The notes beneath the pieces are model-generated. The model had not been told where the DNA came from and did no database searches. It saw only the letters and a program-made list of their open reading frames with translations. A stretch of DNA of 64,000 nt from contig OZ024742.1 of the NCBI GenBank assembly GCA_964016885.1, positions 26,350,001-26,414,000 of the forward strand, in the 5' to 3' direction. The position numbers and the translations under genes are program-made. Positions within the stretch are counted from its first letter, which is position 1. The number at the start of each line of letters is the position of its first letter. Below, piece after piece: positions 16,640 to 47,089 of the stretch. The DNA is from Eledone cirrhosa (taxonomy: Eukaryota).

Positions 16640-17022
16640 GGGAGATTGGCAGTATCGGTAGAGGGTCGGACGCCATGCTTTGCAGCAAAGTTACGTCCCT
16701 TTACAGACTGAGTTCAAATACTGCCGAGGTTAACTTTGCCTTTCATCCTTACGGGGTCGATAAAATAAATTACCAGTAATACACTGGTTAAATGCTGGCC
16801 TTGTGCCTAACGTAGAAACAATTATTATCCTGGGCGGTGAATTGGCAGTAGCGGTAGAGGATCGGACGCCATGCTTTCGAGCATAGTTACGTCCCTTTAC
16901 GGTCTGAGCTCAAATCCTGTCGAGGTTAACTTTGCCTTTCATCCTTACGAGGTCGATAAAATAAGGTACCAGTAAGGCACTGTGTAATTGCTGGCCTTGT
17001 GCCAAAAGTAGAAACAATTATT
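16640..17022 (+). mobile_element. Two tandem SINE family A copies
   Basis: 16640-16828 and 16832-17022 both match the family consensus. Confidence 0.8.
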
Positions 17023-17413
17023 ATCCTGGGCTATATACTATGTGTTGAACATTAAGGCATGGGCTTTACACATTTCAGAGGTTTATAACGGGCTCATTGA
17101 CCGACCGTGAAAACAATTCCTCTGTTAGGTAAACTCTGGTTTATAAGTTACAGGTAGCTTGGGCAACATTGTATGATCTACATAATATATAAGTAGGCAT
17201 TCATAATATGTACAAGTACCAAGGGAATGTAACAGAGCTCTCTGATACAATCTCTCTGTTCCCCACCAATAACTCCCACTAATCGCCATGATTTTCTTCT
17301 GTGATTTCACATTTCTGTTAATGACATGTTGATTAAATGGCTGCGTGGTACTTACATTTATTAAATACACATTAATACCACCTTTTACACCCATACGCTA
17401 TACCTTACATACA

Positions 17414-26562: not shown

Positions 26563-27613
26563 TCTATATATATAAAACTGAGGTTGTCTGTCTGTCTACT
26601 AAAACCTTCGGCACACATTTCCTCTTAAACCGTAGGTTCAAATTTCGGTGAAATTGCTACACTTATAGATGAGGGTCCGGCGGAACCATCGGTCAAATAA
26701 ATTTTCAAATAAGTTCTTGTTTTTGATTATGTCATCTATATATATAAAGCTGTGGCTGTCTGTCTGTCTATCGATTTTTGGCACACATCTCCTCTTAGAA
26801 TCTCTGACGGAATTGCACCGAAATTGCTATACTTGTACATTGAGCCCTAGCGAAGACATCGGAAAAAATATTTCAAATTGACCCACCCTATGTGACGAAA
26901 TCGAATCTAATGTATCGATTTTTGAGCGTAAGTGACGAGTTATTTCCCTTTGTTCTATATATATAAAGCTGTGGTTGTCTGTCTGTCTATCGATTTTAGG
27001 CACACATCTCCTCTTAGAATCTCTGACGGAATTGCACCGAAATTGCTATACTTGTACATTGAGCCCTAGCGAAGACATCGGACAAAGAATATTTCAAATT
27101 GACCCACCCTATGTGACGAAATCGAATCTAATGTATCGATTTTTGAGCGTAAGTGACGAGTTATTTCCCTTTGTTCTGTTTACATTGAGCGTCTTACGTT
27201 CTGTTTACATTTTCTGCGTGCAAAAATTAAAAAAATTACGCTGGCTTTCTCAGCGTTTAAAATGACATTAACACAATACACGAACAGTTGTCGAGCCAGC
27301 AAAATTTTGACCTGCAAAATTCATCAGTTCGAACACTAAGCTTCCGTTTTGCTTCATTTCCATTTAAAAGCCTTTTAAAACAATATTTTTACTTGAAAAC
27401 AAGTCTATTTAAAGACTACGTAAAACAAACAAATATTTCGTAAAAAAAAGCAAAAATTATATAAGTTTATTTAAAATATATGTATCTGTAAATTTCGTTA
27501 GGCGTGCAGACAGACAGTCGTGCAGACAGACTTTCAGCCAAAAAAGAAACTTAACATTGTAACTTTAACACAGCTACTGAGCGACCCCGAGCAACGCCGG
27601 GCTTTACTGCTAG
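26563..27613 (+). mobile_element. Non-autonomous Helitron with reiterated 5' ends
   Basis: A|TCTATATATATAAA start with (GTCT)n; 3' hairpin CCCGAGCAACGCCGGG then CTAG|T; internal ~220-bp tandem duplication. Confidence 0.75.
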
Positions 27614-38635: not shown

Positions 38636-38727
<92 letters not shown>

Positions 38728-38789
38728 ATGTTTAACCCCGACAGCAGAGCTAAATCCGTTTCGATGGCTATATCTGGGTCCAGAAATAC

Positions 38790-41024
38790 GTACGTACTCA
38801 CGCTCTATGCAAATTAGTCTGCCCACTACTAATATTCATAGAAAAAGCATATAACGATATGTGCTTTTACGATTCTCTAGAAAGGCCGGAGGATAGGTGG
38901 TAAATATTGCTGATGAGATGTAACAACATCGAAACTAGTCCAATATTCCTGTCTGGCTTTCTGGAGAATAGAGGAAAGGTGTTTCCTCGAAAACCAGTAT
39001 GACTCTAAAAACCGGTTTGTCTGTGTGTTTACATACAGAATAGCTGAACACTCACAGTAAAGTGTCCAGTGAAAAACTCGGTACATCTACATATGTACAT
39101 GTGTGTGTATTCATATGCATACTAGTATTTCAGTATACATATGTGGATGTACATTTTTAACTTAATTGTTTAAGCGTCAGTCATACAAAAGTGAGTTACA
39201 AACGAAACGAAATTTAATTTCGTTTCGTTATTTGTTTTTATCCTCTCCGCTGAACCGGTACGTACTCACGCTCTATGCAAATTAGTCTGCCCACTACTAA
39301 TTTTCATAGAAAAAGCATATAACGATATGTGCTTTTACGATTCTCTAGAAAGGCCAGAGGATAGGTAAATATTGCTGATGAGCTGTAACAACATCGAAAC
39401 TAGTCCAATATTCCTGTCTGGCTTTCTGGAGAATAGAGGAAAGGTGTTTCCTCGAAAACCAGTATGACTCTAAAAACCGGTTTGTCTGTGTGTTTACATA
39501 CAGAATAGCTGAACACTCACAGTAAAGTGTCCAGTGAAAAACTCGGTACATCTACATATGTACACGTGTGTGTATTCATATGCATACTAGTATTTCAGTA
39601 TACATATGTGGATGTACATTTTTGACTTAATTGTTTAAGCGTCAGTCATACAAAAGTGAGTTACAAACGAAACGAAATTTAATTTCGTTTCGTTACTTGT
39701 TTTTATCGTCTCCGCTGAACCGGTACGTACTCACGCTCTATGCAAATTAGTCTGCCCACTACTAATTTTCATAGAAAAAGCATATAACGACATGTGCTTT
39801 TACGATTCTCTAGAAAGGCCGGAGGATAGGTAAATATTGCTGATGAGATGTAACAACATCGAAACTAGTCCAATATTCCTGTTTGGCTTTCTGGAGAATA
39901 GAGGAAAGGTGTTTCCTCGAAAACCAGTATGACTCTAAAAACCGGTTTGTCTGTGTGTTTACATACAGAATAGCTGAACACTCACAGTAAAGTGTCCAGT
40001 GAAAAACTCGGTACATCTACATATGTACACGTGTGTGTATTCATATGCATACTAGTATTTCAGTATACATATGTGGATGTACATTTTTAACTTAATTGTT
40101 TAAGCGTCAGTCATACAAAAGTGAGTTACAAACGAAACGAAATTTAATTTCGTTTCGTTATTTGTTTTTATCCTCTCCGCTGAACCGGTTCGTACTCACG
40201 CTCTATGCAAATTAGTCTGCCCACTACTAATTTTCATAGAAAAAGCATATAACGATATGTGCTTTTGCGATTCTCTAGAAAGGCCGGAGGATAGGTAAAT
40301 ATTGCTGATGAGATGTAACAACATCGAAACTAGTCCAATATTCCTGTCTGGCTTTCTGGAGAATAGAGGAAAGGTGTTTCCTCGAAAACCAGTATGACTC
40401 TAAAAACCGGTTTGTCTGTGTGTTTACATACAGAATAGCTGAACACTCACAGTAAAGTGTTCAGTGTAAAACTCGGTACATCTACATATGTACACGTGTG
40501 TGTATTCATATGCATACTAGTATTTCAGTATACATATGTGGATGTACATTTTTAACTTAATTGTTTAAGCGTCAGTCATACAAAAGTGAGTTACAAACGA
40601 AACGAAATTTAATTTCGTTTCGTTATTTGTTTTTATCCTCTCCGCTGAACCGGTACATACTCACGCTCTATGCAAATTAGTCTGCCCACTACTAATTTTC
40701 ATAGAAAAAGCATATAACGATATGTGCTTTTACGATTCTCTAGAAAGGCCAGAGGATAGGTAAATATTGATGATGAGATGTAACAACATCGAAACTAGTC
40801 CAATATTCCTGTCTGGCTTTCTGGAGAATAGAGGAAAGGTGTTTCCTCGAAAACCAGTATGACTCTAAAAACCGGTTTGTCTGTGTGTTTACATACAGAA
40901 TAGCTGAACACTCACAGTAAAGTGTCCAGTGAAAAACTCGGTACATCTACATATGTACACGTGTGTGTATTCATATGCATACTAGTATTTCAGTATACAT
41001 ATGTGGATGTACATTTTTAACTTA

Positions 41025-41028
<4 letters not shown>
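38790..41028 (+). repeat. Tandem array of ~4.8 units of 465 bp, each with a type I hammerhead (retrozyme-like)
   Basis: Unit starts at 38790, 39258, 39723, 40188 and 40653; near-identical units. Confidence 0.92.
38903..38947 (+). ncRNA. Type I hammerhead ribozyme (unit 1; also 39368-39412, 39833-39877, 40298-40342, 40763-40807)
   Basis: AATATTG-CTGATGA-GATGT-AACA-ACATC-GAAA-CTAG-TC-CAATATT, with a long distal stem I extension. Confidence 0.9.
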
Positions 41029-41068
<40 letters not shown>

Positions 41069-41072
<4 letters not shown>

Positions 41073-41191
41073 AACGAGTAGGACCCCGACGGTTGAGCCC
41101 AAGCCGTTTCGACGGCTAATTCTCGACTCTGAGTCCATAATTAGCCGTCGAAACGGCTTGAGCTCAGCCGTCGGGGTCCTACTCGTTCCTA
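41069..41191. repeat. Near-perfect palindrome (~53-bp arms, 17-nt spacer)
   Basis: GGAACGAGTAGGACCCCGACGG..CGTTTCGACGGCTAATT and its reverse complement. Confidence 0.85.
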
Positions 41192-44729: not shown

Positions 44730-44819
<90 letters not shown>

Positions 44820-44836
44820 GGGGTATATGTTTTTGC

Positions 44837-44883
<47 letters not shown>

Positions 44884-45037
44884 AATAAATGCTCTGAAAT
44901 AGCGATATATATATGAATATAGACATAGAATATTCGAAAATATTCTGTATGTTTATAATAAACATTTTGAAGACCTAATCGCTATAGAATAGAATACGTC
45001 ACGTATTACAATTAGATTCTCGATAAAAGCAAGGGAA

Positions 45038-45080
45038 GTAATCTACGCGTTTCATTCTTGTTAGAATTCATCAGGACTAC
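45038..45080 (-). ncRNA. Type I hammerhead ribozyme (also 45348-45390, 45658-45700, 45968-46010)
   Basis: Minus strand GTAGTC-CTGATGA-ATTCT-AACA-AGAAT-GAAA-CGCG-TA-GATTAC. Confidence 0.88.
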
Positions 45081-46585
45081 ATATCCAGTGCTTTTATCGA
45101 GAATGACACAGCTAGAGACTTATAGAATACTTAGCTGTGTACAGGAACTGGTTTGAAAGAGCGGTTGCCGGTCCGGCAGAAATTAGAAATAGGAATAAAT
45201 GCTCTGAAATAGCGATATATATATGAATATAGACATAGAATATTCGAAAATATTCTGTATGTTTATAATAAACATTTTGAAGACCTAATCGCTATAGAAT
45301 AGAATACGTCACGTATTACAATTAGATTCTCGATAAAAGCAAGGGAAGTAATCTACGCGTTTCATTCTTGTTAGAATTCATCAGGACTACATATCCAGTG
45401 CTTTTATCGAGAATGACACAGCTAGAGACTTATAGAATACTTAGCTGTGTACAGGAACTGGTTTGAAAGAGCGGTTGCCGGTCCGGCAGAAATTAGAAAT
45501 AGGAATAAATGCTCTGAAATAGCGATATATATATGAATATAGACATAGAATATTCGAAAATATTCTGTATGTTTATAATAAACATTTTGAAGACCTAATC
45601 GCTATAGAATAGAATACGTCACGTATTACAATTAGATTCTCGATAAAAGCAAGGGAAGTAATCTACGCGTTTCATTCTTGTTAGAATTCATCAGGACTAC
45701 ATATCCAGTGCTTTTATCGAGAATGACACAGCTAGAGACTTATAGAATACTTAGCTGTGTACAGGAACTGGTTTGAAAGAGCGGTTGCCGGTCCGGCAGA
45801 AATTAGAAATAGGAATAAATGCTCTGAAATAGCGATATATATATGAATATAGACATAGAATATTCGAAAATATTCTGTATGTTTATAATAAACATTTTGA
45901 AGACCTAATCGCTATAGAATAGAATACGTCACGTATTACAATTAGATTCTCGATAAAAGCAAGGGAAGTAATCTACGCGTTTCATTCTTGTTAGAATTCA
46001 TCAGGACTACATATCCAGTGCTTTTATCGAGAATGACACAGCTAGAGACTTATAGAATACTTAGCTGTGTACAGGAACTGGTTTGAAAGAGCGGTTGCCG
46101 GTCCGGCAGAAATTAGAAATAGGAATAAATGCTCTGAAATAGCGATATATATATGAATATAGACATAGAATATTCGAAAATATTCTGTATGTTTATAATA
46201 AACATTTTGAAGACCTAATCGCTATAGAATAGAATACGTCACGTATTACAATTAGATTCTCGATAAAAGCAAGGGAAGTAATCTACGCGTTTCATTCAGA
46301 ATGAAACGCGTAGATTACTTCCCTTGCTTTTATCGAGAATCTAATTGTAATACGTGACGTATTCTATTCTATAGCGATTAGGTCTTCAAAATGTTTATTA
46401 TAAACATACAGAATATTTTCGAATATTCTATGTCTATATTCATATATATATCGCTATTTCAGAGCATTTATTCCTATTTCTAATTTCTGCCGGACCGGCA
46501 ACCGCTCTTTCAAACCAGTTCCTGTACACAGCTAAGTATTCTATAAGTCTCTAGCTGTGTCATTCTCGATAAAAGCACTGGATAT

Positions 46586-46628
46586 GTAGTCCTGATGAAT
46601 TCTAACAAGAATGAAACGCGTAGATTAC
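46586..46628 (+). ncRNA. Type I hammerhead ribozyme in the inverted arm
   Basis: Same motif on the plus strand; distal helix ATTCTCGATAAAAGC/GCTTTTATCGAGAAT. Confidence 0.88.
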
Positions 46629-46748
46629 TTCCCTTGCTTTTATCGAGAATCTAATTGTAATACGTGACGTATTCTATTCTATAGCGATTAGGTCTTCAAA
46701 ATGTTTATTATAAACATACAGAATATTTTCGAATATTCTATGTCTATA

Positions 46749-46785
<37 letters not shown>

Positions 46786-46793
<8 letters not shown>

Positions 46794-47069
46794 TTCAAAA
46801 TATTAACAGAAATAGAATTTCTTGTGATCAAGTATATTTTATTATACATATTTCAGCGGTACTGAGCTAACTTCAACAGTACGTCCTCATCAGATACAAT
46901 AAGATGATGCATGACATACCCTGACATAGTAGATGGTTAAGATCCAGTCATGGTATTTTATTTGATGAGGACGTACTGTTGAAGTTAGCTCAGTACCGCT
47001 GAAATATGTATAATAAAATATACTTGATCACAAGAAGTTCTATTTTTGTTAATATTTTGAATTAATATT
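46786..47069. repeat. Inverted repeat (~115-bp arms), each arm carrying a hammerhead motif
   Basis: Minus 46835-46901 (CTGATGA core) and plus 46954-47020 (TTGATGA core): TATTTTAT-core-..GTACTG/CAGTAC..-GAAA-TATGTA-TA-ATAAAATA. Confidence 0.75.
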
Positions 47070-47089
47070 ATATATATATATATATAGTT

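Follow-up and report, generated by a model that had tools for sequence, protein, structure and literature searches.

Two-armed arrays of a 310-bp hammerhead repeat in Eledone cirrhosa suggest priming of reverse transcription from both ends of a (TA)n target

Insertions of a 310-bp hammerhead ribozyme repeat in the genome of Eledone cirrhosa obey a strict rule at their outer ends. In all 69 complete inverted insertions that we mapped, the strand complementary to the ribozyme strand (the cDNA strand) points inward from both flanks, and again in 69/69 one outer end lies at a unit position termed A and the other at a second position termed B. The insertions are young and near-identical. The fixed A and B ends, the independent lengths of the two arms and the unmirrored errors argue for priming from both target ends. 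We consider it probable that the arrays arise when a Penelope-type enzyme, primed at both target ends, reverse-transcribes one RNA circle in rolling fashion; the circle, the ribozyme cleavage and the Penelope partner are parts of this mechanism that we infer.

Results

The window analysed comprises 64,000 nt of Eledone cirrhosa DNA (assembly GCA_964016885.1, contig OZ024742.1, positions 26,350,001-26,414,000 of the forward strand), and positions given without a locus or contig label refer to it (Table 1). The unit of the studied array is tandem, non-coding and of 34% GC. The B arm consists of four full 310-bp units, free of mismatches, and a further 177 nt, i.e., 4.57 units where about 4.6 identical ones had been read by the initial annotation, and the A arm, as described there, amounts to 1.50 inverted units (464 nt, 100% complementary to the B arm). 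Its outer end is the unit's own TA run (46752-46761), which merges with the flanking (TA)n in the manner first reported. A motif scan recovered the minus-strand hammerhead sequence as first described and placed cores on both strands, as had been claimed, with four minus cores at 45074, 45384, 45694 and 46004 and one plus core at 46592; the distal helix, given as 15 bp, measures 16 bp. The orientation does flip in stem II at 46298. The fold-back is nevertheless inexact, for the junction reads TTCATTC/AGAATG, with TTGTT (loop II plus one stem base) missing and without microhomology. A 'tail' is found at the B outer end only, and the B-arm cDNA would read the plus strand inward from the left (TA)n. 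The unit type differs by at least 2 bases from those of all 75 other loci with a full unit.

Table 1. Features of the studied array in window coordinates.
Feature	Positions	Strand	Remarks
Left (TA)n target microsatellite	44733..44880	.	sequence
B arm	44879..46297 (start 44879/44881)	-	4.57 identical 310-bp units; ribozyme strand minus
'Tail' at B end	44879..44914	-	~35 nt, site B (unit phase 309-1) to site A (phase 34)
Type I hammerhead copies 1-4	45038..45080, 45348-45390, 45658-45700, 45968-46010	-	motif scan; weak HH9 match
~155-nt module, one copy, spanning sites B and A	45142..45297	-	common to sister retrozyme
Inner junction, blunt, phases 177/178	46297..46298	.	in stem II, loop II absent
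A arm	46298..46761	+	1.50 inverted units, identical to B arm
Plus-strand hammerhead (46586-46628) with 16-bp distal helix	46562..46650	+	predicted cut at 46622/46623
Right (TA)n target microsatellite	46752..46790	.	sequence

Each unit carries one hammerhead, built of a 6-bp helix I extended by the 16-bp distal helix, a 5-bp helix II whose first pair is A-U rather than G-C, and a minimal helix III whose loop is palindromic. For the extended stem I the folding energy is -32.1 kcal/mol (z -7.0), a value equalled by 0/200 shuffles, and the 48-nt core alone reaches a z of -1.0. At the gathering score, Rfam returned no match; below threshold it gave Hammerhead_HH9 (23 bits vs 52, E 0.049). From the known hammerhead consensus we take the cut site to be phase 163/164. 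Sites A and B are both distant from this predicted cut, and no pile-up of inner arm ends was seen there (2/130 vs 3.4 expected). The layout matches the type I arrangement given for canonical animal hammerheads in PMC4209133.

Genome-wide, the 26-nt core occurs in 8,652 copies at no more than 1 mismatch (control count 0), which at about 9 cores per locus, a figure from the first 11 loci, corresponds by rough estimate to a thousand or so insertions. The window and 82 fetched loci, mostly from contig C1, provided 87 insertion rows; 5 were incomplete, cut at the fetched edge or by N gaps, and were left out. The 82 complete rows comprise the 69 inverted insertions and 13 one-armed rows, the latter including two halves of L102, one sister fragment and L088 with its second arm of about 10 nt. 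Of the 69, 34 had been fetched because of their A+B pairing and the other 35 without that selection. Among 12 consecutive, unselected loci, 10 are inverted. At L041:1420-6148 the insertion is doubly inverted, with one junction occurring twice, and 273 bp of unrelated GC-rich sequence separate an A arm from a B arm at L102:1899-2171.

The modal A end is phase 34 (38/64), at the unit's internal TA run, and the modal B end is phase 309 (39/63), giving an A-B spacing of about 35 nt. When inward pairs within 20 kb were drawn from two independent end lists covering the first 134 Mb of contig C1, all 40 (40/40) were A+B, with 0 A+A and 0 B+B; 26 of 39 unpaired ends were fetched. Almost every complete locus is flanked by (TA)n on either side; L047 is one exception. 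At 45/61 loci whose unit carries a G in the TA run, the match of the A end begins at phase 34 and no longer includes that G, as expected if a (TA)n primer had replaced it. The loci L044, L089 and L098 have a single arm that begins at A and ends at B or close to it, which would fit an A strand that met the second priming site.

Either arm can be the longer one (A in 30 and B in 32 of 62 loci), and the lengths of the two are uncorrelated (rho 0.17, p 0.19). In 34 loci both arms exceed 2 units, and the maximum arm lengths are 10 and 27 units. Because a copy cannot outgrow its template, an arm length that is free of the end type excludes fold-back from a fixed priming site.

The two arms of a locus mostly share their unit type, as judged from the 42 loci that could be compared (26 of 68 were left out for want of a full anchored unit in both arms): the same unit variant occupies both arms in 36/42, compared with 11.5% of 1,722 cross-locus pairs. 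The 84 arms hold 26 unit types, each uniform inside its own locus, and 383/434 units equal their own locus type; in 11 loci the type is private to the locus within the sample. Divergence within a locus is about 0.0005 per base. Substitutions within loci, read in the cDNA sense, are asymmetric, with A>G 17 vs T>C 3 (p 0.006, 47 loci) and, after 24 G>A changes at phase 33 had been set aside as primer overwrite, C>T 11 vs G>A 2, although the numbers are low and include a few repeats within L061. Such transitions are typical wobble errors of reverse transcriptases. The A>G changes fall on A arms (7) and B arms (10), on long and short arms alike, and mirrored substitutions number 1/51. In the 27-unit arm of L061, repeated variants suggest some later local duplication.

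The inner junctions, of which 68 are simple and 65 of these were resolved, look like products of end-joining: microhomology of at least 2 nt is found at 31/51 vs 18% by chance, and 14/65 carry inserts of 1-23 nt. Hairpin-guided joints occur at L042, with a 16-nt match, and at C2:218691922. Junctions that miss a perfect palindrome by no more than 5 nt number 5/65 (2.3 expected, p 0.08), which places the studied locus in a small class and makes it atypical. A check suggested at the outset was whether inversion points cluster in stem II. Across copies, the inner ends proved to be scattered, the outcome named beforehand as contrary to self-priming there, and mildly non-uniform (p 0.03); stem II holds 4/130 of them vs 5.9 expected, two of those 4 being the studied locus itself. 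Near-palindromic junctions counted genome-wide give the lowest number for stem II, with 8 compared with 19, 10 and 13 at three control sites, where the need for exact 11-mer anchors undercounts variant subfamilies at all four sites. Self-priming on stem II would keep the loop, and genome-wide 1/8 of the stem II junctions is such a loop-retaining product. As the loop is missing here, stem II self-priming is unsupported at the studied locus, and the position of its junction in stem II is probably coincidental. The first interpretation is supported in part, namely in rolling reverse transcription on what we infer to be a unit-length circle, and unsupported with regard to self-priming on stem II.

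A sister repeat, about 314 bp long and distinct in its hammerhead, is represented by 2,713 candidates (examples L147-L176, e.g., L157:1131-1707). It matches the 310-bp unit at 79% over 97 nt in the region around A and B, and we regard a module of about 155 nt around B and A as a candidate enzyme-recognition region. Among 30 fetched loci of this repeat, selected for the B end, the second end is A-like in 14/14 inverted loci (11 exactly), and we count these homologous outer ends in favour of two-ended priming.

The 310-bp repeat cannot accommodate an ORF with reverse transcriptase (RT) plus GIY-YIG. GIY-YIG elements are abundant in the genome (10,595 candidates), and RT plus GIY-YIG was confirmed in one ORF. 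In one GIY-YIG family the 3' end comes in a short and a long form that lie about 38 nt apart, and the inverted locus L138 shows both, one per side; an inverted copy of another family, L139, has equal ends. An autonomous partner with the shared module was not found by blastn and profile searches in 74 of the 10,595 candidate loci. Several candidates were rejected as partners: L114 and L200 match strongly and are sister retrozyme copies, and L118 is weak (E 0.007) and in the wrong orientation. At L100:325-3780 a B arm and an N gap are followed by a Penelope-like RT plus GIY-YIG region oriented as the second arm would be, and the gap spoils the link.

Other repeats lie close to the studied array. 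A foldback at 46769-47086, with 139-nt arms and a CTGATGA core, uses the same (TA)n run as the studied A end; both its outer ends are at one position, without a tail, and relatives occur in L130, L137 and L144. A small foldback stands beside (TA)n at 41071-41170, and similar sequence is present at 38724-38790 and adjoining L052 and L195. At 38790-41029 lies an unrelated retrozyme-like array of 4.8 units, each 465 bp long, whose type I hammerhead is on the plus strand and matches HH9 below threshold (31-36 bits). This 465-bp repeat has 2,643 exact cores genome-wide; among the arrays listed, it shows inversions of the same polarity, and one arm has 31 cores. Two-copy tandems of 219 bp (26735-27177) and 196 bp (16645-17031) gave no hammerhead core in a window-wide scan.

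The 310-bp unit is also present, at 56-84% of sampled words, in the 20 runs X1-X20, which bear 17 coded organism labels; none of the listed runs is on record as RNA. X3 and X11 each contain one clean 340-nt circular contig, of a kind that collapsed tandem DNA can yield. Horizontal transfer across the 17 labels was not accepted, as contamination, mixed samples or collapsed tandems may also account for the unit there.

Discussion

Earlier work has described retrozymes, inverted pLTRs, the tail and the two start sites. We class the 310-bp family as a non-LTR retrozyme, given its tandem low-GC units, one type I hammerhead per unit and a dispersed multi-copy family. Its insertions also display features of Penelope-type integration, namely an inverted 5'-truncated copy, a one-sided tail of 30-40 bp and a microsatellite or AT-rich target, and the kinship with Penelope inverted ends that was first suggested is supported. 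The Penelope tail described in PMC11167929, of 30-40 bp, has the same size as the A-B spacing.

In the mechanism that we favour, a Penelope-type reverse transcriptase/endonuclease would cut a (TA)n microsatellite, and both ends of the target DNA would prime on one, probably circular, RNA, one at A and the other at B. Two polymerases would then roll round the circle independently, for 0.2-27 turns, before the two cDNAs are end-joined into a large palindrome that bears the Penelope 'tail' on one side. At the studied locus, both cDNA strands may have stopped in stem II by chance and been joined bluntly. PMC11167929 lends this scheme a biochemical basis: there, both strands are cut and extended by a purified Penelope-type protein for which a dimer is predicted, and reverse transcription starts at two adjacent internal sites that bound a tail of 30-40 bp. 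The same paper describes the start site as alike on both strands, which counts against this scheme. We further count the negative partner search in 74 loci, the near-palindromic, microhomology-free junction of the studied locus and the hairpin-guided joints against the two-ended model, and the equal ends (no tail) of L139 and of the neighbouring foldback against a general tail rule.

Two-ended priming might alternatively have used, as its template, a linear multimeric transcript from a donor array of homogeneous units, or two RNA molecules from one dominant donor locus. Such priming would account equally well for the polarity, the A/B ends and the microhomology. The main substrate reported in PMC11167929 is uncleaved RNA, so a circle is not required in vitro, and this, together with the lack of a strand difference there, keeps a linear or two-RNA route open. 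However, the 11 private variants fixed in both arms and the 26 locus-uniform types would each time require a bottleneck to a single unit, and the ribozyme cut shows no excess of inner ends. We therefore hold this alternative to be possible but unlikely.

That one rolling cDNA folds back at a hairpin, here stem II, and serves as its own template, with the far end joined at a TA run, was attractive in view of the studied junction, and self-priming of this kind has been proposed for palindromic Penelope junctions in PMC3846280. It would likewise yield identical arms, and the genome contains a single stem II junction that retains the loop and a single hairpin junction of 16 nt. Against it stand the missing loop II at the studied junction, the position of stem II as the poorest of the four sites in near-palindromic junctions, the occurrence of the longer arm at either end type and errors that have the same sense in both arms and are almost never mirrored. 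Family-wide, this model is largely refuted, and we judge it improbable as an account of the insertions; for the studied junction taken alone, hairpin annealing followed by the loss of 5 nt is conceivable, if doubtful.

It is very improbable that DNA recombination or repair inverted or expanded ordinary satellite arrays once they had been inserted. Variants that recur in the 27-unit arm of L061 would suit such a history, whereas the universal polarity, the fixed A/B ends, the strand-biased transitions and the very low within-locus divergence do not follow from it. A palindrome made by fold-back chimeric reads or mis-assembly, for which perfect arm identity and a 1-nt spacer would be typical, is scarcely credible, as the inverted arm ends at site A in accordance with the family rule and continues into different flanking DNA, and most family junctions are offset by tens of bases.

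The family resembles several known systems. Like the metazoan non-LTR retrozymes of PMC7229834 and bioRxiv 10.64898/2026.07.22.740005, for which copying from circular RNA has been proposed, it consists of non-coding tandems of about 300 bp with low GC and one type I hammerhead per unit, and it is found together with Penelope-like elements. Unlike the direct tandems described in bioRxiv 10.64898/2026.07.22.740005, its insertions are mostly two-armed palindromes with fixed unequal ends in (TA)n; the word 'inverted' is absent from PMC7229834. They share with the Penelope insertions of PMC8557442, PMC3846280 and PMC11167929 the inverted 5'-truncated copy, the usually one-sided tail, the microsatellite or AT-rich targets and the two adjacent internal RT start sites, and our junction statistics favour two-ended priming over the self-priming set out in PMC3846280. 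They differ from Penelope insertions in that both arms are multi-turn tandem arrays and the unit has no room for an RT plus GIY-YIG ORF, and from Penelope reports in that the one-A-one-B rule has been counted here per insertion.

A further relative is L1 twin priming, the source of 5' inversions, in which both target ends prime on one RNA with the same polarity and microhomology at the inner junction. There the RNA is linear, the internal site at which the second primer anneals varies, and the two parts barely overlap. The arrays of Eledone cirrhosa resemble it in using both target ends as primers, in their single polarity and in the microhomology at the inner junction; they differ in that the start sites are fixed, adjacent and internal and that both arms repeat the whole unit. 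In the open literature we found no report of two-armed retrozyme arrays, the one-A-one-B rule or shared-template evidence.

The formation of tandem and inverted Penelope structures is described in PMC8557442 as an unsolved step, and the integration route of retrozymes in PMC7229834 as hypothetical. The roughly one thousand young insertions estimated here record start sites, template identity, processivity and joining event by event. They support in vivo what was observed in vitro, namely two start sites; they add the one-of-each rule and speak against self-priming. The two-armed mechanism, if true, would explain how Penelope elements form their inverted ends, and a 310-nt RNA offers a compact substrate for tests of the mechanism. 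The palindromes themselves may serve as sources of double-stranded RNA or as fragile sites.

We speculate, with the balance of probability standing even, that Penelope-type retrotransposition is twin-primed by design: an enzyme dimer would grip one RNA in two registers separated by about 35 nt and extend the two cut target strands simultaneously, and a ribozyme-made circle would turn this into a double rolling circle that lays down kilobase palindromes in (TA)n. If so, one mechanism would underlie the inverted pLTR, the one-sided tail and the retrozyme arrays, and the module of about 155 nt would be a portable mobilisation signal across retrozymes with different hammerheads.
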